Made by a program: the position numbers and the translations under genes. Shown one piece after another: positions 5,458 to 54,658 of a DNA stretch of 64,000 bases (position 1 is its first letter; every line of letters starts with the position of its first letter). The stretch is from Nitrospirota bacterium (GTDB taxonomy: Bacteria; Nitrospirota; Thermodesulfovibrionia; UBA6902): assembly GCA_016213935.1 (NCBI GenBank), contig JACQZG010000006.1:60622-124621 (forward strand). The letters run 5' to 3'. The notes beneath the pieces were generated by a model. The model saw nothing but the letters and a program-made list of their open reading frames with translations, ran no database searches and was not told the origin of the DNA.

Positions 5458-5796
<339 letters not shown>

Positions 5797-7267: not shown

Positions 7268-7678
7268 TTATTTGAACGGATTTATTACTTCAAGGCCCGG
7301 ATAATTGAAATCTTTTGCATTCCGCGTAACCAGTCGCAATTCATGGTGCAAGGCAGTTGCGGCAAGAAGGCTGTCGATGCTGGGGACCGGGCGCCCGACC
7401 TTTGCAAGAAGACTGCCCCAACGGTCTGCCACGGCAATATCAACAGGAAGCACCCGTCCATCAAACCATGCCGGAAGTTCATGTTCCAGCCAGAGGCGCA
7501 GTTTCTCGCGCCGTTTTCCGTCAGTAAGGGAATCTATGCCCTTGCGAATCTCGCCGAGTGTCAGGACGCTCACAAAGAGTGCGTCACCGGGCAGTTGATC
7601 GAGCCATGTAATCACCGACTTGTTCGGGTTGCGGCAGATCGTCTCTGATAAAATATTGGTATCGAGCAGATAACTCAT
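7268..7678 (-). CDS. vapC: PIN-domain toxin VapC
   Basis: MSYLLDTNILSE... with acidic PIN residues; overlaps the upstream antitoxin gene by 4 nt. Confidence 0.85.
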   Translation of the reverse strand: MSYLLDTNILSETICRNPNKSVITWLDQLPGDALFVSVLTLGEIRKGIDSLTDGKRREKLRLWLEHELPAWFDGRVLPVDIAVADRWGSLLAKVGRPVPSIDSLLAATALHHELRLVTRNAKDFNYPGLEVINPFK

Positions 7679-7926
7679 GCGATCTCAGCTTTGCGCGTTA
7701 GTGTTTGCTCGCGCTTCAGTTTAAGTTTCATACCGTAAAGCGGCGAACGGCGCATGAATTCCACGAAACTCCCTCTTGGATGCCTGAGTTGTTCATATTC
7801 CTCTCTTGAAATCACTACGGCGGTTTGTTGCCCGTGAATAGTGATATTCTGAGGGCCTTCCTTTGTCGCCTTTTTAATAACCTCGCTCAGGCGTGCCTTT
7901 GCCTCCTGTAACTGCCATGTAGCCAT
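7675..7926 (-). CDS. vapB: Phd/YefM-family antitoxin (VapB partner); the track ORF extends to 7947, the ATG at 7926 carries a GGAGG SD
   Basis: MATWQLQEAKARLSEVIKKATKEGPQNITIHGQQTAVVISREEYEQL matches the Phd/YefM fold pattern. Confidence 0.8.
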   Translation of the reverse strand: MATWQLQEAKARLSEVIKKATKEGPQNITIHGQQTAVVISREEYEQLRHPRGSFVEFMRRSPLYGMKLKLKREQTLTRKAEIA

Positions 7927-7963
7927 GACAACCTCCTTTTGGTTCACCCTCGATAATCCCTAA

Positions 7964-12215: not shown

Positions 12216-14069
12216 ATGGCCGATTACTACCACAAATTTCAGATACCCGTAATGGGAACAGGCCACTCGGCCGACACGCCCATAAGGGTTGCCCATCTCG
12301 GGATAACCTCTGTTATCTCGCTCGTAGATGACATCCTTCTCGAACAAATCAGAAAGTATTATTGCGCGAAGTTCAGCCTCCCTTACTCTGAGATTACAAG
12401 AAATGAAGAAGACGGCAGGGCAAAAAGGATAACCGCTTATCTTGACGCCGTCAATCAGATCGTCAGCCTTAAACTCGATGCCTTAAAGAGAGCGCCTTTC
12501 TCGCCCGGCAATGACAAGTGCCTGTACTTCGAACTTCTGCCTGATGAGAGCCCGCTCAGGGCTGATTACATGAAGATGGCCTCCATGAAGCCCGGCCCTG
12601 AGAGGGAGTTTTTGGAAAAAGAACTTACCGGGAAGATGCTTCCCGGCTCTATCGATGTGAACATAATGGCGAAGCTCGACAACACGAATTATGACGCAGA
12701 CGGCAATCCTCTTCCTGACGAATACAGCGACGCGAAGGCCGCGCTGAGAGGTTATGCTAAGAGTTCCTTAAAGTCCGCGGTCGAGCTTTCAGCAGGCATG
12801 AACCAGAGGCTCCTTAACTACATAACCGAGTTCAGTGATTTCTACAGGAATGAAAACGGAGAGATAAAGAAGAGGATAATCCTGAAGGTGAGCGATTTCC
12901 GTTCATCCATGATACAGGGGAAATTCCTTGCCAAAAAAGGGCTTGAGGTCTATGAATACCGGATAGAATCAGGGCTCAACTGCGGCGGCCATGTATTCCC
13001 CACCAACGGCGTTCTCCTCCCGGTGATACTGCGGGAGTTCAGGGAAAATCGTGAAAGGCTGGGGAGAGAGTTCCTTCCTCTGATAGAGAAATATTATGAA
13101 AAGACGGGACGGAAATTCCCGGCGTCTGCCAGAAGTTTCCGCCCGTTTGTAACTGTTCAGGGAGGCATAGGCACATATGCCGAGACCCGCAGGCTTATGG
13201 AAGATTTCGGCATGGACATAACGGGGTGGGGGACGCCTTTTCTGCTCGTTCCTGAAGCGACATGTGTTGACAGGGCAACGCTTGAGCTTCTGATGCGGGC
13301 AGGCGAAGATGACCTTTATATAAGCGACGCCTCGCCTATAGGAGTCCAATTCAGCAATGTGTACGGTACGGGAGCAGGGCTTTGGGCGAGGAAGAGGTTT
13401 AAGGAAGGAAGGGCAGGCTCTCCGTGCGGGAAGAGTTTCCTGAAATTCAACACCGAGTTCACAAAAAAGCCGATATGCCTTTCATCGAGGCAGTACGAAA
13501 AGCTGAAGCTTGAGCAGATCGCGGGGATGGATATAAATGAAGAAGAAAGAAACAGGCTCATTGAGAATGTCATTAACAAGGAATGCATCTGCGACCAGCT
13601 CGGCAACGGCTGTCGCATAGCCCTCGGTATTGTGAACGAGAAGGACGCGCCCCAATGCATGTGCCCGGGCCCCAATATAGCATGGTTCAGCAGAACCTAT
13701 TCGCTGAAGGAGATGGTCGGCCATATTTACGGCAGGATACCTTCGCTCGTGCCTCCCGAACGGCCGCACATGTTTGCAAAGGAGATCGAGCTTTATGTCG
13801 ATTATTTCGAGAAGAAGGCGGCTGATTCTCCATTAACTCAGAATGAGATAGGCACCCTCAGGGAGTTTAAAGAGAACTTCAAGAGGAGCCTCCAATTCTG
13901 CGCCGAGATTTCAAAAGGAGAGGCTTATCCCGGCGAAAATCTCAGATCTCTCGCGGATTACGTAGAAAAGCAGGGGCAGCGCTTTGAGCTTATCTATGAA
14001 AAATTTCAGAAGAAAGCCGGGAGCGCCGATTTAAAGAAGCCGCAGCTCAGTACTTCAGGCCAAGATTGA
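12216..14069 (+). CDS. Hypothetical 617-aa protein with a Cys cluster (CICDQLGNGC...CMCPGP)
   Basis: Long uninterrupted ORF with good coding character; no family recognised. Confidence 0.55.
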   Translation: MADYYHKFQIPVMGTGHSADTPIRVAHLGITSVISLVDDILLEQIRKYYCAKFSLPYSEITRNEEDGRAKRITAYLDAVNQIVSLKLDALKRAPFSPGNDKCLYFELLPDESPLRADYMKMASMKPGPEREFLEKELTGKMLPGSIDVNIMAKLDNTNYDADGNPLPDEYSDAKAALRGYAKSSLKSAVELSAGMNQRLLNYITEFSDFYRNENGEIKKRIILKVSDFRSSMIQGKFLAKKGLEVYEYRIESGLNCGGHVFPTNGVLLPVILREFRENRERLGREFLPLIEKYYEKTGRKFPASARSFRPFVTVQGGIGTYAETRRLMEDFGMDITGWGTPFLLVPEATCVDRATLELLMRAGEDDLYISDASPIGVQFSNVYGTGAGLWARKRFKEGRAGSPCGKSFLKFNTEFTKKPICLSSRQYEKLKLEQIAGMDINEEERNRLIENVINKECICDQLGNGCRIALGIVNEKDAPQCMCPGPNIAWFSRTYSLKEMVGHIYGRIPSLVPPERPHMFAKEIELYVDYFEKKAADSPLTQNEIGTLREFKENFKRSLQFCAEISKGEAYPGENLRSLADYVEKQGQRFELIYEKFQKKAGSADLKKPQLSTSGQD

Positions 14070-17892: not shown

Positions 17893-19293
17893 ATGGAACT
17901 TTCTGTTGTAATCCTTGCGGCAGGGCTTGGGAAGAGGATGAAGTCCCTTAAGCCCAAAGTACTTCACGAGGCACTGGGCAAGCCGATGCTTCAGCATGTC
18001 ATGGACGCTGTGATGCCTCTGAAGCCTGTGAGGACAGTGATTGTTGCGGGCAGCGGCGCGGATGCCGTGATGAAGGAGGTAACCGGAAGCGGCCTCTCTT
18101 TCGTTATTCAAAAGAGGCTTCTCGGGACAGGCGACGCCCTTTCCACCGCGAAAAAGGAACTGAGCCGCAAGGGCACGATTCTTGTACTTAACGGCGACTG
18201 CCCTCTTATCACAACAAAAACCCTCAGAACTTTTCTTTTGCGGCACAGGCGCGGCGGGAATTGCCTATCCTATCTCTCTTTTGTGAATGATTCTCTTTCC
18301 GGTTACGGAAGGACTATACGGGACGGCAAAGGCAGAGTTGCCGGCATTATCGAGGACAAACATGCTTCAGTCGCTGAAAAAGCTAAATTCAGGGAGTTTA
18401 ACGGCGGCGTTTACGTCATGGAGCATGAGGCTCTCGGCTTCCTGAACAGAATAAAAAGGAACCCCTCTTCAGGCGAGTATTACCTGACAGACCTGATTGC
18501 CATTCTCTTAAAGGCCGGGAAAAAGGTAGACACATATATCTGTCCGGAAGAAGATATACTCGGCGTCAACAGCAGGGAAGACCTTTGCAGAGTTTCAAAG
18601 GTGTTGCAGGAGAGGGTAATATCAGGCCTGTTGAAGAAAGGCGTGACCTTCACCGATCCCTCAAGGTCTCTGGTTCATTCCCGAGTCACCATAGGAAAAG
18701 ATACGGTCATATACCCGAATACTTACATTGAAGGGAAGAGTTCGATAGGCAGCGGCTGCGTTATTTATCCCGGCTCAAGGATCATTGACAGCATTATCGG
18801 AGACGATGTGAAGGTGAAGGACAACTCCCTTATCGAAAAGAGCATAGTAAAGAAGGGCGCCTCCATCGGCCCTATGGCGCACCTGAGGCCCGAGAGCGTC
18901 ATCGGAAGCGGCGCAAAGGTCGGCAACTTTGTGGAGATAAAAAAATCCACGCTCGGCAGAGGCGTAAAGGCATCTCACTTAAGCTATCTCGGCGACGCCG
19001 TTATCGGCGATGACGTAAATATAGGCGCGGGCACCATTACCTGCAACTATGACGGCAGGAAGAAGCATAAGACCGTTATAGGCACCGGCGCGTTTGTCGG
19101 AAGCGATACACAGTTTGTCGCGCCTGTTACGGTCGGAAAAGGGGCATACGTGGGCGCAGGCTCGACCATCACAAAAGATGTCCCTGATTTCGCGCTCGGC
19201 GTCAGCAGGTCTGAACAGAAGAACATCGCCGGCTGGGGAAGAACAAACAAGTTAAAAGTTAAAAGTGTAATGTTAAAGGTAAAAGGTAAATAA
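17893..19293 (+). CDS. glmU: Bifunctional GlcNAc-1-P uridyltransferase / GlcN-1-P acetyltransferase
   Basis: MELSVVILAAGLGKRMKS... nucleotidyltransferase N-terminus plus a hexapeptide-repeat C-terminal domain. Confidence 0.93.
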   Translation: MELSVVILAAGLGKRMKSLKPKVLHEALGKPMLQHVMDAVMPLKPVRTVIVAGSGADAVMKEVTGSGLSFVIQKRLLGTGDALSTAKKELSRKGTILVLNGDCPLITTKTLRTFLLRHRRGGNCLSYLSFVNDSLSGYGRTIRDGKGRVAGIIEDKHASVAEKAKFREFNGGVYVMEHEALGFLNRIKRNPSSGEYYLTDLIAILLKAGKKVDTYICPEEDILGVNSREDLCRVSKVLQERVISGLLKKGVTFTDPSRSLVHSRVTIGKDTVIYPNTYIEGKSSIGSGCVIYPGSRIIDSIIGDDVKVKDNSLIEKSIVKKGASIGPMAHLRPESVIGSGAKVGNFVEIKKSTLGRGVKASHLSYLGDAVIGDDVNIGAGTITCNYDGRKKHKTVIGTGAFVGSDTQFVAPVTVGKGAYVGAGSTITKDVPDFALGVSRSEQKNIAGWGRTNKLKVKSVMLKVKGK

Positions 19294-19416
19294 AATAATA
19301 ACAAATAACAGAGGTTGAAACTTTAAACTGATTTTGCAAGAAGCTCTAAGAAACATATATAAATAACGATGTTAATTCCCTTCACTTTCAACTCTTAACT
19401 CTTAACTTTTTATATC

Positions 19417-21107
19417 ATGTGCGGAATAGTCGGTTATATCGGAAAGAGAAACGCAATACCTATCCTTATCGATTCTCTTAAGAGGCTCGAGTACAGGGGC
19501 TATGATTCAGCGGGAATTGCCTATATCGAGGATAAGAGGATAGATGTACAGCGGTGCGAAGGCAAGATAAAGAAGCTTGAGTCATGCATAAAGAGTAAAA
19601 ACCTGAGCAGTACGGCAGGCATCGGCCATACAAGATGGGCGACTCACGGCAGGCCTTCTGTATCAACAGCTACACAAAAGAAGGGCTCGATATCGTAAAA
19701 GCGACTAAAGAATCGCTCAGGAGGATAGAAGGCGCGTACGCTCTCGGGATAATAAGCGAAGATGAGCCTGACAGGATAATCGCAGTCAAGAAGGACAGCC
19801 CGCTTGTACTCGGCTTAGGCAAGAATGAGTTTTTTATAGCCTCCGACATTCCGGCATTCCTTAAATATACGCGTGACGTTATCATCCTCGAAAACAATGA
19901 GTTGGCAGTCATAACGAATGACGGGATATCCATAGAAGGGGTCTCTGCGGAGAGTTTTAAAGAGAGGGTCACAAAAATCACATGGAGCCCCTCAATGGCT
20001 GAAAAAGGCGGCTACAGGCACTTTATGCTCAAAGAGATACATGAACAGCCCCAGGCGATTACAGATACGATAAGGGGGCGCGTCTCTATCGAGGAGGGCT
20101 CGGTAAACCTTGCCGAGTTCTCATTCAGCGAGAAGGAGTTGAAAAAACTTAATAAGGTCTTTCTCGTGGCGTGCGGCACATCGTGGCATGCGGCTCTCGT
20201 AGGAAAATACATGATTGAAGACCTCGCGAGAATTCCTTGCGAGGTTGATATTGCTTCGGAGTTCAGGTACAGGGAGCCGGTTCTTCCCTCTAACAGCCTC
20301 ATTACGGTCATTACGCAGTCAGGGGAGACCGCAGATACCCTTGCCGCCCAGAGGGAGGCCAAGAAGCGGGGAGCAAAAGTTTTGAGCATATGCAATGTGA
20401 TAGGCAGCACATCTTCACGGGAGGCTGACGGCGTATTCTATACTCATTCCGGCCCTGAGATAGGCGTTGCGTCCACAAAGGCATTTACGACTCAGCTTAC
20501 CGCGCTCTATTTTTTTGCGATAGCCCTCGCAAGGGCAAAAAAGAGCATTAGCAAGAAGACGGCAAGGGAGTTGCTGAAAGAGGCGCTTCTCCTTCCTGAA
20601 AAGGTGGAGCAGGTGCTTAAGCTTGAGGATTCTATCCTTAAAATCGCAAAAAAGATATGTAATGTCAGCGACTTTCTTTATCTCGGCAGGGGAGTAAATT
20701 ACCCAATTGCGCTTGAAGGGGCGCTGAAGATGAAGGAGATATCCTATATACACGCCGAAGGTTATCCCGCGGGCGAGATGAAACACGGCCCCATCGCGCT
20801 TATTGACAAGGATATGCCCGTGCTCGCGCTTGTGCCGGGGCGCGGCGAGAAGATATATGAAAAGATTTTGTCCAATATAGAGGAGGCCAAAAGCAGGAGG
20901 GGCAAAGTCATCGCCATAGCTGTCAAAGGCGATGAAAAGGCCATGCGCAATTCGTCCCACATCATCTTTATCCCCGCGACCAACCGTTATCTTTCGACCA
21001 TTCTTTTCGCGATACCGCTTCAGTTGCTCGCTTACCACACCGCTGTTCTGAGGAAATGCAATGTGGATCAGCCGAGAAATCTGGCCAAGAGCGTTACTGT
21101 TGAGTGA
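19417..21107 (+). pseudogene. glmS: Glutamine--fructose-6-phosphate aminotransferase, disrupted (track ORFs 19417-19698 and 19635-21107 lie in different frames)
   Basis: MCGIVGYIG...[12 protein letters not shown] then shifts frame. By recalled comparison with E. coli GlmS, roughly 50-56 aa (the NAHPH...HNGIIEN block) are missing between HGxPS and the ...RIEGAYA block. Both SIS domains and the C-terminal ...QPRNLAKSVTVE are intact. Confidence 0.7.
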
Positions 21108-21270
21108 TTGGTGTTTCTCTTTTCTTCATTTTTTCAATAAGTCTCTTTTTAAGAGGTTCAGCTTCTGACTGAATTGATATGATCCGTTCCTTTACTGACA
21201 AACGTTTCATTCTTTCATAATTTGCTTCTCTTTCCGAATGAAGCTGCTTCATGATTTTCGGTTCATTCAT
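21094..21270 (-). CDS. Small 58-aa ORF, possibly a TA-module component, convergent with and slightly overlapping the glmS 3' end
   Basis: MNEPKIMKQLHSEREANYERMKRLSVKERIISIQSEAEPLKKRLIEKMKKRETPITQQ, preceded by GGAGGA; charged and helical like small antitoxin or addiction-module proteins. Confidence 0.35.
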   Translation of the reverse strand: MNEPKIMKQLHSEREANYERMKRLSVKERIISIQSEAEPLKKRLIEKMKKRETPITQQ

Positions 21271-21303
21271 TATTATCCTCCTGAATCCAGCTTTTTCAAG
21301 AGC

Positions 21304-21563
21304 TATACTCCAGCTTTATTCGCAAATCGTTCAAGCTCAGTGTAATGCATAAGGTGAACACCTGCTACATTAGCTAGTTGCTTGGCTGACTTGGTATAAG
21401 AGGTATTAGACACAACAGCAGCAATGTTTGCTTTCTCAAATTTTTTGCCAGCAATTACTTCTTGTACTGCTCCATTACCAACAGGCTTAGAATATTTCTT
21501 ACACTGAAAGACCGCTTTTATATTACCGCGATTTGCAATAACATCAATACCTTGATCGCCTCC
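21304..21563 (-). pseudogene. C-terminal fragment of an Mrr-cat-type restriction endonuclease
   Basis: Minus-strand translation ...GDQGIDVIANRGNIKAVFQCKKYSKPVGNGAVQEVIAGKKFEKANIAAVVSNTSYTKSAKQLANVAGVHLMHYTELERF* carries the Mrr_cat D-x-GID...QCK+Y motif. The frame is closed by TAA TAA directly upstream, so the N-terminus is missing. Confidence 0.6.
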
Positions 21564-21902
21564 TTATTATGTTCCTTCAATAGCCAACAAGTTATTAGTT
21601 TTCTGGATAATAACAAGATTCTTTAGCCGGGTCAATGAAATAATTGATAAAGTAAAAGTAAAACCAGATTCCCGATAAAATCCTCCAACAGTTGGTGACC
21701 TTAGGCACGGGGATGGCAGAAAAGACAGAAACCTCAGTGAATTTGGATTATCCGCTTGAAATCAGAAGGAACAAGCCTCTCTCTTCACAAATTTCTCAGC
21801 CGAATCTGATATAATAAAAATCACCTATATATAGATAATTCCCCGGTTACCCCGTTAATCAATATCATATGACGGATATCGCATCTAAAAACGAGGTCAT
21901 GT

Positions 21903-31162: not shown

Positions 31163-32026
31163 ATGAATGCCATGCGTAAGATAAGAGATGTTTCGGAATT
31201 TCTCGGCGGACGCGGAATCACTTCTGCCGAAAGAGAGGCTGAATTGATCATAAGGCGCGGGCTTGGAATGGACGCTGTAACGATATACAGAGATGATCCT
31301 TCTCTCACTGAAGTCAATGAAGAGTTTGTTTCGGAAATGGCGTTGAGAAGGTCAATGCGCGAGCCGCTTCAGTATATACTGGGAAGCGTGGATTTCATGG
31401 GGCTTGAGATATCGGTCGGGAAAGGTGTTTTAATCCCGAGGCCCGAGACAGAGCTTTTGGTTGAACAGGCTGTAAAGATAGCTCACAGCTATCAGCTATC
31501 AGCTATCAGCAAAGAATTAACAATTCTCGACCTCTGCACGGGAAGCGGATGTATCGCTCTTGCTCTTGCGTCGGAATTCAGAAACGCCCGTGTCCTCGGC
31601 GTCGACATCTCGGATGACGCGCTGAGCTACGCAATAAAGAATGCGGAGATAAACGGCATTTTAAACGCCTCTTTTATTAAAGGGGACCTCTTTAAGCCGC
31701 TAAGCCCTAACCTTTCTTTTGACCTCATAATCTCCAATCCCCCTTATATAAAAAGCGGGGATATTTCTTCACTTCAGCCCGAGATAAGTGAGTGGGAGCC
31801 TTTAAACGCGCTTGACGGCGGCCATGACGGCCTTCTTTTATACAGGAAGACAATTCTTGCGGCATGCGATTTTTTAAATGACAAAGGCATGCTGATATTT
31901 GAGCTTGGCGCAGGATGTGCCGAAGATGTTGTATCTTTGATGAAGAGCGCAGGATACATTAATATTGAAACCATGAAAGATTACGCAGGCATAGAGAGGA
32001 TAGTAAGCGCGCGATGGACAAGATAG
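31163..32026 (+). CDS. prmC: Release factor glutamine N5-methyltransferase (HemK/PrmC)
   Basis: DLCTGSGCIALAL SAM motif I and NPPY catalytic motif; directly follows prfA. Confidence 0.9.
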   Translation: MNAMRKIRDVSEFLGGRGITSAEREAELIIRRGLGMDAVTIYRDDPSLTEVNEEFVSEMALRRSMREPLQYILGSVDFMGLEISVGKGVLIPRPETELLVEQAVKIAHSYQLSAISKELTILDLCTGSGCIALALASEFRNARVLGVDISDDALSYAIKNAEINGILNASFIKGDLFKPLSPNLSFDLIISNPPYIKSGDISSLQPEISEWEPLNALDGGHDGLLLYRKTILAACDFLNDKGMLIFELGAGCAEDVVSLMKSAGYINIETMKDYAGIERIVSARWTR

Positions 32027-43150: not shown

Positions 43151-43405
43151 ATGGATAAACTTCTTAAGATAGACAAAACTGGTGATTCAAGACTTCTCAA
43201 GGAAATAAAGAAATCATTGGGCTTGAAACTTGATGATGAGCTCTTCTTGTTCAGCGGGAAAGATTATCTTGTAATTAAAAAGGTTCAGAGACCTTCCCTT
43301 TCAGCGCGTTTCAAGAGCCTCTCTGAAAAGGTGGAGAAACGATTTAAAAAAGAAGGGGTAAAGGAAGATGTAGTAGTTGAGGCCATTAAATGGGCAAGAA
43401 GGTAG
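43151..43405 (+). CDS. Putative antitoxin (AbrB/SpoVT/VapB-like) of a PIN toxin
   Basis: 84 aa, overlaps the downstream PIN gene by 16 nt; a swapped-hairpin-like N-terminus (KIDKTGDSRLLKEIKKSLGLKLDDELFLF). Confidence 0.5.
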   Translation: MDKLLKIDKTGDSRLLKEIKKSLGLKLDDELFLFSGKDYLVIKKVQRPSLSARFKSLSEKVEKRFKKEGVKEDVVVEAIKWARR

Positions 43406-43806
43406 TGCTTGATACGAATGTGTTTGTTTCAGCGCTGGGCTGGAAAGGAGCATCTCGAAATATTTTCAACAATTGCATTGACGGAGATTTGGAATTATTC
43501 ATTTCTACCGAGATATTCGATGAAATTAAAAGGGTCTTGAATTATCCTAAATTTAAGTTCAGTCAGGACGAAATTTCCGAGTTTTTGGATCAGATATTGG
43601 AAGCCGGCAATTTTGTTGAAACGAAGGTCAAGGTAGACATAATCAAGGACGATCCAAGTGATAACAAATTTCTGGAATGCGCGGCAACTGTAAATGCAGG
43701 CTTTGTTATAAGCAGGGATCCGCATATATTGAAAATTAAAGAGTTTGAGGGGATAAAGCTTATGTCTCCTGAAGATTTTACAAAGGCGGGGTATGGCGGA
43801 CGGTAG
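43390..43806 (+). CDS. PIN-domain toxin (VapC-like)
   Basis: MGKKVVLDTNVFVSAL...ISTEIFDEIKRVL... with conserved acidic PIN residues. Confidence 0.8.
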   Translation: MGKKVVLDTNVFVSALGWKGASRNIFNNCIDGDLELFISTEIFDEIKRVLNYPKFKFSQDEISEFLDQILEAGNFVETKVKVDIIKDDPSDNKFLECAATVNAGFVISRDPHILKIKEFEGIKLMSPEDFTKAGYGGR

Positions 43807-44203: not shown

Positions 44204-46099
44204 ATGAACCGCTACGTTATTCTCGGCACAGCCGGACACATTGACCACGGAAAGAGCGCGCTTGTTAAGGCGCTCACAGGCACAGACCCTGACAGGCTGA
44301 AGGAAGAGAAGGCGAGGGGAATCACCATTGACCTCGGTTTTGCAGACCTCTCATATCCCGACGGGCTCAGGGTGGGCATCATCGATGTGCCGGGGCATGA
44401 GAGGCTTGTGAAGAACATGCTTGCGGGCGCAAGCGGTATCGATATCGTCCTCATGGTGATAGCGGCTGACGAAGGAATAATGCCGCAGAGCAGAGAGCAC
44501 CTCGCCATCTGCAACCTTCTCAAAGTGAAGAAGGGCATCATCGCCATCACAAAATCCGACCTTGTTGATAAAGAGTGGCTTTCTCTTGTCATTGAAGAGG
44601 TGAAGGAGTTTGCGAAAGGGACATTTCTCAAAGGCGCCGAAATAATCGCGGTCTCCTCAAAAACGGGCGAGAATCTTGATCTCTTAAAAGAGAAGATAAA
44701 AGAGGCGGCATCCGGCGTTGAGCCCAAGCATGAGAAGGCTGTCTTCAGGCTTCCTGTTGACAGAGTATTTACTCTTAAGGGTTTCGGCACGGTTGTCACA
44801 GGCACCTCCATTTCAGGAAGCATTAAAACGGACGCGCCTGTTGAGATACTTCCCAAGGGAATCGCGGCAAAGGTGCGGGGGCTTCAGAGCCACGGTGAGG
44901 CCATTGAAGCCGCATATGCCGGGCAGAGGGTTGCGGTAAACCTTCTTGGCGTTTCAAAGGATGAGATTCAGAGGGGGGATGTGCTGGCGACCCCGGGCAA
45001 ACTGAAGTCTTCCCACGTTGTTGACGCCGAGATAGAACTTCTTAAGGATTCTCCTCTCAATTCCCTCAAGAACAGGAGCCTCGTGCATTTCCATGCCGGC
45101 TCATCCGAGATTACCGGAAGGATAATCATATACGGAAAGGATGAACTGAAACCCGGAGAGGATGCTTTATGCCAGTTCCGCTTCCCAAAGCCGGTCGCGC
45201 TCATGGCGGGCGACAGGTACATAATCAGGCGCTTCTCCCCGCTTATGACGATTGGAGGGGGCGAGGTTATTGACCCGTCGCCGAGGAGGAGAAAGAAGGG
45301 GCAGGATATTGAGGGTCAGAGCGTCTTTGTTGAAGGTAGCCTCTCTGAAAAGATAGCCGCAAAGATACGGCAGAAAGGGCTCCAGGGCCTTTCACGCGGG
45401 GAGCTTGAAGGCTGGATAATGGCAGAGCTTGCGGACATAAATTCCGCCCTCGATAAACTTATCAGCAGGGGCGAGATCATGAAGTGCGAAGAGCGGCTCA
45501 TCCATAAAGATGCCTTTAATGATTTCTCAGGCGGCATCATCTCAATGCTCAGGGATTTTCACGCAAAGAATCCGCTCAAGCCGGGCATGCCGAAAGAGGA
45601 GATACGGTCATCTTTTCAGGCTATTGACCAGCGGCACTTTGACGGTTTGCTCGCAAAAGTCAAAGATATTGTCTTTGATAAAGAGGTGATAAAGTTAAGC
45701 GCATTCAGGCTCTCTTTGAGCGAAGGAAACAAGGAAACAAGGGAGAAGATTTTAAAGGCTCTCGATGCATCGGAATTTCAGCCCCCGACAGATGAAGAAC
45801 TCGCCGCACTGGCCAGGGTTGACAAGAAAGAGGTGGCCGAGATACTTAAGATAATGGCAAAGGAAGGGGAGATTGTGAGGATAAAGGACTCCATATATAT
45901 ATCAAAGCCAAACCATTCAAAGATGATCGAGAGGCTGAAGGGCTTTTACTCGAAAAAAGCCGAGATGACGGTCGGCGAGTTCCGAGATATTCTTAACACA
46001 TCGAGAAAATACGCGCTCCCTTTCCTTGAATATCTCGACGGCAGCAGGATAACGATGAGGGTGGGCGACGTTAGGAAGTTTCTTTATAAAGGGCAGTGA
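44204..46099 (+). CDS. selB: Selenocysteine-specific translation elongation factor
   Basis: GTAGHIDHGKSALVKALTG G1 motif, DVPGHERL, and winged-helix mRNA-binding C-terminal domains; total 631 aa. Confidence 0.92.
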   Translation: MNRYVILGTAGHIDHGKSALVKALTGTDPDRLKEEKARGITIDLGFADLSYPDGLRVGIIDVPGHERLVKNMLAGASGIDIVLMVIAADEGIMPQSREHLAICNLLKVKKGIIAITKSDLVDKEWLSLVIEEVKEFAKGTFLKGAEIIAVSSKTGENLDLLKEKIKEAASGVEPKHEKAVFRLPVDRVFTLKGFGTVVTGTSISGSIKTDAPVEILPKGIAAKVRGLQSHGEAIEAAYAGQRVAVNLLGVSKDEIQRGDVLATPGKLKSSHVVDAEIELLKDSPLNSLKNRSLVHFHAGSSEITGRIIIYGKDELKPGEDALCQFRFPKPVALMAGDRYIIRRFSPLMTIGGGEVIDPSPRRRKKGQDIEGQSVFVEGSLSEKIAAKIRQKGLQGLSRGELEGWIMAELADINSALDKLISRGEIMKCEERLIHKDAFNDFSGGIISMLRDFHAKNPLKPGMPKEEIRSSFQAIDQRHFDGLLAKVKDIVFDKEVIKLSAFRLSLSEGNKETREKILKALDASEFQPPTDEELAALARVDKKEVAEILKIMAKEGEIVRIKDSIYISKPNHSKMIERLKGFYSKKAEMTVGEFRDILNTSRKYALPFLEYLDGSRITMRVGDVRKFLYKGQ

Positions 46100-46153: not shown

Positions 46154-46252
46154 GGGAGCGTATAGGGTTCTGGTGTCTCTCCCGGACTTCAAATCCGGTG
46201 TTGCCTGGCCAAAACCGGGCAGGGTGGGTTCGATTCCCACACGCTCCCGCCA
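46154..46252 (+). tRNA. selC: tRNA-Sec (UCA anticodon), about 99 nt including the encoded CCA
   Basis: GGGAGCG...cggacTTCAAAtccg anticodon loop, a long variable arm and GGGTTCGATTCCCAC T-arm ending CCA; sits 55 nt after selB. Confidence 0.85.
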
Positions 46253-46567: not shown

Positions 46568-48040
46568 TTAAACTTTATTAAGCTCGCTTATCTCGTTGAA
46601 ATACTCCTGGCATTCGAGAAAGGCATCCACGACATCCGGGTCAAAGTGCTCTCCGCGCTCGGATTTGATTATTTCAACGGCCTTCTCATGACTCATTTCA
46701 TCCTTATAATGCCTCTTTGACCTCAGCGCGTCATAGACGTCGCAGAGGGCGAATATTCTCGCTTCAAGAGGTATCTTGTCACCCTTGATGCCGATGTATC
46801 CCTTGCCGTTGTATTTTTCATGGTGGTAGGCGCAGATATTTTTGGCAATCTCGAAGAAGGGTTGCTTCGTCGTGAACTTCTCTATATCGTTCTGCAGAAG
46901 CTGTTTCCCGATGAATACATGCTTCTTGATGATATTGAATTCCTCGTCAGACAGCCTTCCCGGCTTAAGAAGCACAGAGTCCGGTGTCGCCACCTTGCCT
47001 ATATCGTGCAGAGGGGATGCATCTGCTATACAGACTAAGAAATCTTTGTCTATGGTCTTCCGGTATTTGGACTTTTTTCGCATATGTTTTGAGAGGAGGA
47101 CGGCATACTCCTTGGTCGAGTTGAGGTGGCGGCCGGTTGTTTTATCCCTCCACTCCGTTGTGTCGGCAAGAGAGTGAATGATGATTTTTTGCGCGCCTAT
47201 CAGCTCTTTGAACCTTGAAATATTTAAATAAGCGAGAAGTATCAGCAGAGAGATAAAAAGGATGGTCAGGATCACGGGGATGGTTGCCCTTTCGTAAATC
47301 GTCTTCTTGATGAATTCCTCGTTTGAACGGGTTCCGAGAAGTATATTTATTTCTGAGGTGATGTTTGCGGTTACATAGTGAAGAGTGTCATGTTTTGAAA
47401 GGTATATCTTGCCGTTACGGCCCAGGATATTATAGTGCAAATTCGTGGTTTCAACTGACTCGTCAGAGTTGAATGTAACAGCATTGCCTGTGTCATTAAT
47501 TATAAATATATTATCAGGAAGCAGGCGCAGCATATTAAAGACAGATACGGTTGCATTCAATTCCCCCTTTTCAGCGCCTTTGATATCAGTAATAGGAGTG
47601 GCTATCTCCGCCATTTTAAAGCCCCTGATATTCCTCGGGTCATATGAGCTGTTGACTGCGGTTAATACCTCATTGCCTGAACCATCAACTATTCTCAGCT
47701 TATATATCTCCTTGTGGTTGGCCATCAGGACTTGGAGGTTTTTCGCTATGTCTTCTTTTTCCGCCATATCTCTATAATTGCCGTATGCAAAGGTTTTCAA
47801 GCTCGGGATGCTGCTCAGAAAGAGGATGTTGTTTTTTATGTCTGTGAAGTGGATCTCAACTATTTTTTTGGAGGTGTTAAGGGATATTTTTTGATTGCTG
47901 TCATTAAATCTTATTTCAGAATCGAGCATCTGGTTTATGGCATTTAATATGATGAAGCCGATGATTATGCAGATCAATACAAAGGTCGTAATGGATGCGG
48001 CATTTTCCCTGACAACGCTTCTCATATGGTCACCTTGCAT
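46568..48040 (-). CDS. HD-GYP domain phosphodiesterase with an N-terminal TM/periplasmic sensor region
   Basis: HDIGKVATPDSVLLK...HHEKYNGKGY HD-GYP motifs; N-terminal TM helix plus an extracytoplasmic domain. Confidence 0.8.
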   Translation of the reverse strand: MQGDHMRSVVRENAASITTFVLICIIIGFIILNAINQMLDSEIRFNDSNQKISLNTSKKIVEIHFTDIKNNILFLSSIPSLKTFAYGNYRDMAEKEDIAKNLQVLMANHKEIYKLRIVDGSGNEVLTAVNSSYDPRNIRGFKMAEIATPITDIKGAEKGELNATVSVFNMLRLLPDNIFIINDTGNAVTFNSDESVETTNLHYNILGRNGKIYLSKHDTLHYVTANITSEINILLGTRSNEEFIKKTIYERATIPVILTILFISLLILLAYLNISRFKELIGAQKIIIHSLADTTEWRDKTTGRHLNSTKEYAVLLSKHMRKKSKYRKTIDKDFLVCIADASPLHDIGKVATPDSVLLKPGRLSDEEFNIIKKHVFIGKQLLQNDIEKFTTKQPFFEIAKNICAYHHEKYNGKGYIGIKGDKIPLEARIFALCDVYDALRSKRHYKDEMSHEKAVEIIKSERGEHFDPDVVDAFLECQEYFNEISELNKV

Positions 48041-52372: not shown

Positions 52373-53767
52373 ATGGCAGAATTATTATCCGGCAAATTGA
52401 ATCTATTGCCAAACGCGTTGAAAGTGATCCAGAAGAGATACTTACGAAAGGATGAAGAAGGCAATGTCATCGAGAGCCCTGATGATATGTTCAGGAGGGT
52501 CGCAAGGGTCATTGCATCCGCAGACGCTAAATTCGGCACATCCGAGCCCAGGATCAAAGAGGTTGAAGAAGAATTTTATAACCTGATTACGTCGCTGAAA
52601 TTTCTGCCGAACAGCCCAACTCTCATGAATGCCGGAAGAAGGCTGGGGCAGCTCTCGGCGTGCTTTGTCCTTCCTGTTGAGGATTCCATGGAATCCATTT
52701 TCGAGGCTGTGAAGAATGCCGCGCTTATCCATAAGTCCGGAGGGGGTACAGGATTCTCTTTTTCAAGGCTCCGGCCAAAGGGCGATATAGTCGGCTCCAC
52801 CAAAGGCGTATCTTCAGGCCCCATCTCATTCATGACGGTCTTTGATTCAGCTACAGAAGCGATTAAGCAGGGCGGTACGAGAAGAGGCGCCAATATGGGC
52901 ATGCTCCGCATTGACCATCCCGACATACTCGAATTTATAACTTCAAAGGATGACTGCAGCAAGCTCAACAATTTCAATATCTCTGTCGCGCTCACCGACG
53001 AATTTATGGATGCCTTTGAAAAAGACGGCGAGTATGAGCTGAAGAATCCGCACGACGGCAAGGCTACGCGCAGGCTGAAGGCAAAATATGTCTTTAATCT
53101 TATCGTAAATCATGCATGGAAGAACGGGGAACCCGGCATAATCTTCCTTGACAGGATGAACAGCGACAACCCTACCCCGGGCATAGGGCAGATCGAGAGC
53201 ACAAATCCATGCGGCGAACAGCCTTTGCTTCCCTACGAATCCTGCAATCTCGGCTCCATAAATCTTTCTAAATTCGTGAAGGGGTTTGAAACATCCGCAG
53301 ATGCAAAAAGTTTCTGCGTTGACTGGGAATCGCTCGGGGAGACGGTGCACTCAGCCGTGCACTTTCTTGACAATGTGATAGAAGTGAACAAGTATCCTAT
53401 CGAGAAGATAGAGGAGATGACAAAGGCCAACAGAAAGATAGGGCTCGGCGTGATGGGGTGGGCGGACATGCTCGTGCAGCTTGGCGTACCCTATAACTCT
53501 GAAGAGGCTATCTTGCTCGGCACGGAAGTAATGAAGTTCATACAGGATGAGGGCAGGAAGATGTCGTCCGAGCTTGCTGAGGAGAGAGGCGTCTTCCCGA
53601 CTCACGGCGAAAGCATTTATAAAGACAGGATGAAGCTCAGAAACGCCACCGTCACGACCATTGCCCCAACCGGCACGCTCTCTATAATAGCAGGCTGTTC
53701 AAGCGGCATAGAGCCTCTCTTTGCGGTATCTTTTGTCCGCAATGTCCTTGAGGGGACAAAACTTTAG
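52373..53767 (+). CDS. nrdJ: Class II (adenosylcobalamin-dependent) ribonucleotide reductase NrdJ, N-terminal 464 codons, ending at an in-frame TAG
   Basis: NrdJ-type N-terminus [24 protein letters not shown]...; terminates ...GTKL* and continues in the same frame (next feature). Confidence 0.85.
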
Positions 53768-53770
53768 GAG

Positions 53771-54658
53771 GTGAATCCCTATTTTGAAAAGATGGCGAGA
53801 GAGAGGGGATTCTGGAGCAGGGAGCTTATTGAGGAGATAGCTGAGAAAGGGACGCTTCACGGAGTTGCCAATGTGCCTGATGATGTGAGAAATATCTTCA
53901 CTACGGCCCACGATATAACTCCTGAAGACCATGTAAGGATGCAGGCCGCGTTTCAGAAGCATGTTGATAACGCTGTTTCAAAGACCGTTAATTTCCCCAA
54001 CAATGCAACTCAAAAAGATGTTGAGAATGTATATCTCCTCGCATATACGCTTGGCTGCAAGGGCGTAACCGTATACAGGGACGGGTCGAGGGAGGAGCAG
54101 GTCCTCTCAACAGGCAAGACTGCGGGCACCGATGAGAAGAAGAGCGACTCGCCCCAGAAGATAGTTCCCAAGAAGAGGCCTGAGACTATTTACGGCACAA
54201 CTACCCTTATGAATACCGGATGCGGCAATCTTTATGTAACCATTAATGAGGACCATAACGGAAACCTTTTCGAACTCTTCACACGCATGGGCAAGGCAGG
54301 AGGCTGCGCGTCAAGCCAGGCAGAGGCGATAGGAAGGCTGGTGAGCCTCGCATTCAGGAGCAATATAGACTCGCATGAGATCGTAAAACAGCTCAGGGGA
54401 ATAAGCTGCCACAGCCCTGCATGGGCAAACGGCGGAAAGATATCCTCATGTTCAGACGCCATATCAAAAGCCATTGAAAGATATGCCGAGCACGGGGATA
54501 AGGCCGACGGCAACGGCAACGGCTCGCACGGCAGGGAGAAGAAGGGGATTAAAGAGAAGATAATATTCTGCGGGGCGTGCCCGGACTGCGGAGGGGCGGT
54601 GGAGCACGAAGGCGGCTGCGCGGTATGCAGGGACTGCGGCTTTACGAAGTGTTATTAG
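53771..54658 (+). CDS. nrdJ: NrdJ C-terminal continuation (295 codons), same frame as the upstream part, includes a C-terminal Cys-rich tail
   Basis: EVNPYFEKMARERGFWSRELIEEIAEKG...VTVYRDGSREEQVL..., ending CGACPDCGGAVEHEGGCAVCRDCG. 53771 minus 52373 is 1398, a multiple of 3. Confidence 0.8.
   Translation: MNPYFEKMARERGFWSRELIEEIAEKGTLHGVANVPDDVRNIFTTAHDITPEDHVRMQAAFQKHVDNAVSKTVNFPNNATQKDVENVYLLAYTLGCKGVTVYRDGSREEQVLSTGKTAGTDEKKSDSPQKIVPKKRPETIYGTTTLMNTGCGNLYVTINEDHNGNLFELFTRMGKAGGCASSQAEAIGRLVSLAFRSNIDSHEIVKQLRGISCHSPAWANGGKISSCSDAISKAIERYAEHGDKADGNGNGSHGREKKGIKEKIIFCGACPDCGGAVEHEGGCAVCRDCGFTKCY

Follow-up and report, generated by a model that had tools for sequence, protein, structure and literature searches.

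A blunt 145-nt deletion interrupts glmS in a metagenome-assembled Nitrospirota genome

The glmS gene encodes glutamine--fructose-6-phosphate transaminase, the enzyme that opens amino-sugar synthesis and so the route to cell-wall precursors. It is indispensable to bacteria with de novo peptidoglycan synthesis, except where amino sugars are provided, and a glmS copy that cannot be read through raises the question of whether the organism has lost the gene or the deposited sequence misrepresents it. Such a copy lies in a stretch of 64,000 nucleotides from a Nitrospirota bacterium (assembly GCA_016213935.1, contig JACQZG010000006.1, positions 60,622 to 124,621), hereafter the window. An earlier note, made by reading this DNA and comparing it with the E. 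coli sequence, had proposed an internal deletion of about 160-170 nt plus a frameshift in the glutaminase domain, and had attributed the damage either to an assembly collapse or error or to a genuine inactivation compensated by amino-sugar uptake. Here we define the lesion by comparison with orthologues, consider what the retained parts of the gene and its surroundings say about the age of the lesion, and weigh the explanations for its origin.

At the glmS locus (19417-21107), the plus strand carries two overlapping ORFs in different frames, as the note had described, one of 93 aa (19417..19698) and one of 490 aa (19635..21107). The 93-aa ORF starts with MCGIVGYIG, with the Cys nucleophile directly after the initiator Met (aligned to Cys1 of the E. 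coli enzyme, PDB 1JXA), contains the HTRWATHG motif and follows the GlmS sequence as far as HGRPS (codon 81, last base 19659), after which 12 out-of-frame codons lead to a TAA. The 490-aa ORF opens with nine unrelated codons and then follows the GlmS sequence from INSY (19662) to the C-terminus (QPRNLAKSVTVE; KSVTVE). It includes two SIS stretches (Pfam, 1.5e-57), and its LAKSVTVE tail is identical to that of the orthologues. The NCBIfam equivalog model for glmS, TIGR01135, matches over positions 1-80 in the N-terminal fragment and 132-607 in the C-terminal fragment, leaving positions 81-131 unmatched, and neither ORF matches a Pfam GATase/glutaminase family to threshold. The SIS domains and C-terminus are intact, as had been claimed, with the model matched through to its last position (607 of 607), and the distance from HGRPS to RIEGAYA is indeed about 20 codons. 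The retained 1,686 nt of glmS are free of additional stops and frameshifts, and there are no N bases anywhere in the window. Instead of a continuous frame of about 610 codons, the locus consists of 93 and 490 aa in separate frames. Table 1 gives the positions of these segments and of the neighboring features.

Table 1. Segments of the interrupted glmS gene and features around it; positions count from the first nucleotide of the window.
Feature	Position	Strand	Evidence or remark
Intact glmU (466 aa), the gene immediately 5' of glmS	17893..19293	+	TIGR01173 531.6 bits (cut-off 366.85), profile 2-450/452; MBI4842973.1
glmU-glmS intergenic region, 123 nt, AT-rich	19294..19416	+	aligns with the L164 intergenic region
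glmS codons 1-81, start of the glutaminase (Ntn amidotransferase) domain	19417..19659	+	translation; TIGR01135 profile 1-80/607
Deletion junction	19660..19661	+	145 nt gone between; G opens former codon 82, T closes former codon 130
Out-of-frame tail of the N-terminal ORF, ends in TAA	19660..19698	+	ORF list and sequence
glmS codons 131-611 and stop: glutaminase remainder, linker, two SIS domains, KSVTVE tail	19662..21107	+	TIGR01135 132-607/607, 602.6 bits
58-aa ORF over the glmS stop codon, hypothetical, HY809_01435	21094..21270	-	MBI4842974.1
Truncated Mrr-type restriction endonuclease remnant in the enlarged glmS-uvrD spacer	21306..21563	-	Pfam Mrr_cat 4.3e-16, profile 31-113/115
murA, intact, UDP-GlcNAc consumer	32014..33264	+	TIGR01072 587.9 bits (cut-off 392.7)

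The closest matches in a search of a collection of 5.8 billion proteins were 611-aa GlmS proteins from Thermodesulfovibrionia/Nitrospirota metagenome-assembled genomes (MAGs), three of which (P0001, from GCA_030646035.1, P0002 and P0003) served as references for identity. The DNA of the locus was compared with that of three orthologues, L161 (GCA_030646035.1), L162 (a JGI metagenome contig) and L164 (a Logan contig). All three DNA alignments gave one 145-nt gap and nothing else, so that the size proposed earlier was a modest overestimate. Since 145 equals 48 x 3 + 1, the change of frame stems from the same single event, and the frameshift that the note had listed as a separate lesion disappears as such. 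Because this one blunt deletion takes out part of the glutaminase domain and shifts the frame, full-length GlmS cannot be made from the recorded sequence. In the protein alignments 49 residues are absent, residues 82-130 of the 611-codon gene, and the retained N-terminal and C-terminal parts are 77-78% and 80-81% identical, respectively, to the three references. The segment absent here is present in every one of the 117 full-length homologues (608-628 aa) that are closest to the gene. It contains 19 of the 190 columns that do not vary among these homologues, within the NAHPH, HNGIIEN and TDTEV motifs. The glmS of the window is defective but in other respects a usual gene of the Thermodesulfovibrionia type; as recorded it is a pseudogene, and it represents no novel class of feature or system.

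E. coli GlmS (PDB 1JXA, 4AMV and 2J6H; glutaminase domain 1XFF) has the same two-domain architecture, and in alignment with it the parts kept in the window correspond to residues 1-81 and 131/132 onward, with E. coli residues 82-130 absent. The gap falls at these residues in all alignments, which bears out the claim that the NAHPH...HNGIIEN segment with the oxyanion hole is missing, and the E. coli sequence on which the earlier note relied proved accurate against 1JXA and 4AMV. Following the published E. coli numbering (Isupov et al. 1996; Teplyakov et al. 2001), the retained part includes Cys1, Arg73, Trp74, Thr76 and His77, and the removed part includes the oxyanion-hole residues Asn98 and Gly99 as well as Asp123, a ligand of the alpha-amino group of glutamine. 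With the oxyanion-hole residues and Asp123 gone, the glutaminase half is predicted from the sequence to be unable to function.

The junction itself provides information on how the deletion could have arisen. The window reads GCCTTCTG followed by TATCAAC across the join. In the orthologues, the left breakpoint follows GCC(G/T)TC(A/G)G and precedes AG, and the right breakpoint lies between GCCATCT and TATA. The retained and deleted ends share no bases, so that the join is blunt and without microhomology; no repeat was found at the two breakpoints in the intact orthologues, nor was any relevant direct repeat found in this region of the window. Spontaneous deletions in bacteria are usually flanked by short direct repeats. 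Slippage through the nearby GCCTTCT/GCCATCT similarity was considered and set aside, as it would yield a 147-nt in-frame product, unlike the one observed. In the absence of microhomology and repeats, neither slippage nor repeat collapse is supported; of the two explanations offered by the earlier note, the collapse falls away, and an assembly error of another kind and a genuine inactivation both stay under consideration.

We found no clear sign of relaxed selection on the retained parts of glmS in either conserved columns or divergence ratios. The window differs at only one of 171 invariant columns of the 117 homologues, by a conservative change from L to M, and in a leave-one-out comparison 16% of the intact homologues score as badly at invariant columns as the window does. 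At columns conserved to 90% the window has 15 differences, mostly conservative changes, compared with a mean of 6.6 (sd 3.9), a mildly high count in a genome that is an outlier of the homologue set. The ratio of the window-L161 divergence to the L161-L162 divergence is 1.45 for the C-terminal part of glmS, compared with 1.29 for argH, 1.43 for gmhA and 1.16 for glmU; for the N-terminal part, with its 81 residues, the ratio is 2.4, based on small numbers. Since the retained parts appear undecayed, the lesion would be either evolutionarily very recent or not biological.

The surroundings of the gene are similarly well preserved. The gene order argH-gmhA-glmU-glmS-uvrD-gatC-panD-yqeY-NIF3-dnaG-rpoD is common to the window, L161 and L162, so that the broken gene occupies the orthologous position, and all neighbors except glmS have the expected length and domains. 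The glmU gene is indeed intact, as the note had stated from its reading, and so is murA; the steps after GlmS are therefore kept. Among roughly 66 ORFs of the window that were compared with Pfam or NCBIfam, there was no second glmS, no nagA, no nagB and no recognizable amino-sugar transporter. A second ORF of 490 aa (46568-48040) was considered as a glmS copy and turned out to encode an HD-GYP-type protein.

The spacers on both sides of glmS have features of their own. An imperfect 34-nt inverted repeat (19246-19279 and 19378-19411) pairs the lysine-rich 3' end of glmU (AAGTTAAAAGTTAAAAGTG) with the sequence before the glmS start (AACTCTTAACTCTTAAC); its arms lie around the 123-nt spacer, which is kept in L164, and the corresponding spacers of L161 and L162 are only 6-30 nt long. 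A regulatory RNA in this unusually long spacer was considered and is not supported, since Rfam gave no match at 19150-19750, including the glmS ribozyme, even at E<=10, and predicted folding was no better than that of shuffled sequences (z = +1.39 for the window and +0.17 for L164). Downstream, the glmS-uvrD spacer (21108-21902) is 795 nt in the window; L161 has 134 nt in this place, and the spacer of L164 extends over about 1.8 kb with a PIN-domain ORF and a 131-aa ORF inside. The Mrr remnant in this spacer is 86 aa long, has two in-frame stops immediately upstream and lies 200 nt 3' of glmS. The 58-aa ORF, which has no Pfam match, is identical at 55 of 58 positions to its counterpart in L164 (2145-2321), where it stands beside an intact glmS, although the two glmS genes share no more than about 80% identity; the ORF may represent a small conserved gene or belong to a mobile module. 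Immediately 5' of it is a promoter-like TTGAAA-16-GATAAT (21299-21272). In this lineage the region 3' of glmS is a variable site of insertion and decay, reminiscent of attTn7, although no transposase genes were seen.

Several other features of the window were recorded. A selenocysteine toolkit is encoded by selA (34551-35942; MBI4842988), selB (44204-46099; MBI4843000) and tRNA-Sec (46154-46248; Rfam 74.1 bits), so that some in-frame TGA codons elsewhere in the genome may specify Sec rather than stop. Between 36000 and 42000 lies an island of low GC content (35-40%, compared with about 49% elsewhere) that contains DUF1828, an NMT1-type substrate-binding protein with an ABC ATPase, DUF4062 and a radical SAM protein, together with a 181-aa ORF without significant Pfam match at the position expected for a permease; the island was probably acquired horizontally. 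A tmRNA gene is present at 5458-5796 on the plus strand (RF00023, 174.3 bits), and across the whole window tmRNA and tRNA-Sec were the only Rfam matches at gathering score. Finally, two toxin-antitoxin-like loci were seen, one with a PIN domain protein preceded by a Phd/YefM antitoxin (7268-7678 and 7675-7947, minus strand), the other a second PIN protein, PIN_3 (43390-43806, plus strand).

The deposited record offers a further view of the lesion. The source MAG is listed at NCBI as "Nitrospirae bacterium" with HY809_ locus tags, and eight proteins of the window are identical to its products. The 617-aa protein at 12216 is MBI4842967.1 (HY809_01395), and MBI4842974.1 is HY809_01435; between the two there are seven protein steps and eight locus-tag steps, which leaves one locus without a protein. 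No RNA gene was found by Rfam in this interval. Given one proteinless locus and no RNA gene, the locus-tag arithmetic indicates that the proteinless locus, presumably HY809_01430, is almost certainly glmS, already annotated as a pseudogene. Five exact variants of the N- and C-terminal parts were looked up as possible "partial" glmS proteins, and none was present in the protein collection; together with the absence of N bases, this indicates that the lesion is not a masked gap. A record with two partial proteins flanking a gap is likewise unsupported, as the locus tags fit a single pseudogene locus.

Independent assemblies of the same organism were also sought. Exact look-up of glmU, the 93-aa ORF, the 490-aa ORF and uvrD in a gene-position index gave no independent assembly across the junction. 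Protein searches with both glmS fragments returned nothing closer than 72-81% identity, and the GTDB representative genomes and JGI metagenomes contained no relative closer than 71% (glmS) or 59% (glmU). A Logan contig from SRR12113406, a run that at least includes this organism, has an identical rpoD and is only 2.4 kb long.

For the origin of the lesion, we infer from the intact remainder of the gene, the intact neighborhood and the blunt, repeat-free junction that a fixed biological loss is most likely not the cause. Because glmS is essential, real pseudogenes should be strongly depleted among genes of its kind, whereas assembly errors fall at random. A gene that normally cannot be lost, intact pathway partners, undecayed remnants, a blunt junction and the uncurated short-read nature of the MAG all favor an error of local assembly or scaffolding, or the capture of a minority allele, and we regard such an origin as slightly more probable than not. 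Two contigs would have been joined at a scaffolding point without the intervening sequence of about 145 nt; alternatively, a defective minority allele could have been taken into the consensus. The realistic form of an artefact is a blunt mis-join at a scaffolding point, not a repeat collapse. The style of the accessions and locus tags suggests that the MAG probably comes from the groundwater project PRJNA640378, whose methods comprise MEGAHIT assembly and IDBA-UD scaffolding with no curation step described (PMC7906910). This project includes several Nitrospirae bins of 47-48% GC and 7-36x coverage, none of which could be matched to the MAG. Local assembly errors that corrupt protein-coding genes have been documented in uncurated MAGs, with IDBA-UD suspected to be especially prone to them, and Chen et al. 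2020 point out that such errors spread incorrect gene sequences into public databases (PMC7111523). The recorded sequence shows neither an N run nor any other trace of scaffold joining, which counts against an artefact.

The window contains another damaged core gene that bears on this question. The gene nrdJ for the vitamin-B12-dependent ribonucleotide reductase (52373-54658, plus strand) is interrupted by an in-frame TAG at 53765-53767 (EGTKL, stop, EVNPYF), giving two ORFs of 464 and 295 aa in the same frame that abut at 459/462 of the NCBIfam NrdJ model NF006417. Homologues have a conserved Leu, Ile or Phe at the position of the TAG and relatives read straight through it, and the stop is likely the result of a TTG to TAG change. 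Split nrdJ genes are known in Pseudomonas. Since such a substitution is unlikely as an Illumina assembly error, it hints at real inactivating mutations in this genome, and, taken together with the truncated Mrr gene, the nrdJ stop points to real gene decay at or near the glmS locus.

These two damaged genes are part of the case for a genuine and very recent deletion that is fixed or dominant in the population, with survival ensured by a second glmS, by salvage of GlcNAc/GlcN from the community or by an ammonia route (NagB in reverse), which we consider a serious possibility, albeit one that we do not prefer. Also in its favor, the lesion stands in the deposited sequence without Ns, the locus tags between HY809_01395 and HY809_01435 suggest that it was annotated as a pseudogene, and some bacteria, Tannerella forsythia among them, live without the gene (PMC5790795). 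However, glmU and murA are intact here, whereas T. forsythia has lost glmS, glmU, murA and murB together (PMC5790795), and the roughly 66 ORFs scanned in these 64 kb include none of the genes, from nagA and nagB to an amino-sugar transporter or a second glmS, on which such an organism might draw. In addition, the retained 1,686 nt lack signs of relaxed selection, and a junction with zero microhomology is atypical of deletions by replication slippage. If the deletion were real and dominant, a free-living groundwater Nitrospirota of the class Thermodesulfovibrionia would only now have given up GlcN6P synthesis from glutamine, with glmU and murA still in place, and would live either as an amino-sugar auxotroph on GlcNAc/GlcN from its community, a "Black Queen" loss, or by an ammonia-dependent route, possibly through the fragment with the two SIS domains; this fuller scenario we hold to be rather unlikely.

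It is much less probable still that the C-terminal ORF with its two SIS domains is expressed alone as a GlcN6P deaminase or ammonia-dependent synthase, comparable to archaeal GlmD or NagB-II, so that the gene would have taken on a new role rather than been lost. The isomerase half and C-terminal tail are perfectly preserved, in-frame ATG codons exist at 19635 and 19995, the latter with a GGAG 7 nt upstream, and there is weak similarity to the NagB-II and GlmD models. Nevertheless, the fragment scores 602.6 bits with the glmS equivalog, compared with 122.6 for NagB-II (NF046059; cut-off 430) and 95.7 for GlmD (NF041128; cut-off 580), so that it neither exceeds the cut-off of either family of stand-alone SIS deaminases nor matches one better than glmS. 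The SIS part still follows a glutaminase remnant of about 110 residues and has no start with a ribosome-binding site that is its own: the GGAG-ATG at 19995 is identical in intact orthologues, where it reflects the conserved codons of ITWSP.M and is thus not an adaptation, and no Shine-Dalgarno-like sequence lies upstream of the ATG at 19635. To our knowledge, E. coli GlmS cannot use free ammonia. The last explanation, that the segment is naturally absent in this clade, as the earlier note had allowed, or that it is encoded by two functional genes as a natural split, has a negligible probability and found no support, since the alignment of orthologues placed the segment in 117 of 117 homologues with 19 of 190 invariant columns inside it, glmS is one gene of 611 aa in the closest relatives that share the synteny, and the two ORFs, which overlap in different frames, are even in combination 49 residues short.

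If the lesion is an assembly error, as we favor, it is a further case of a corrupted core gene in an uncurated public MAG and calls for caution in inferring amino-sugar auxotrophy or cell-wall metabolism from this genome. If it is real, a free-living bacterium would very recently have lost a gene that is essential almost everywhere, which would point to a dependence on amino sugars of the community. In either case, the organism should not be counted as glmS-negative in metabolic reconstructions until the reads have been examined.

Comparison with known systems places the locus closest to its own relatives. The intact GlmS of related MAGs (P0001, P0003 and L164) shares with the window the MCGIVGYIG N-terminus and the KSVTVE C-terminus, and in these MAGs the gene stands in the same argH-gmhA-glmU-glmS-uvrD order; they have a continuous glmS of 611 codons, whereas the copy in the window lacks the 145 nt (codons 82-130) and is frameshifted. 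Tannerella forsythia, which is naturally without glmS and depends on the salvage of amino sugars (PMC5790795), resembles the window in having no functional glmS, but it also lacks glmU, murA and murB, whereas the window has glmU and murA intact beside a fresh-looking glmS remnant. An assembly error at this locus would be of the kind documented for MAGs (PMC7111523), with a single corrupted coding gene, the syntenic stretch around it intact, and an uncurated genome built from short reads.
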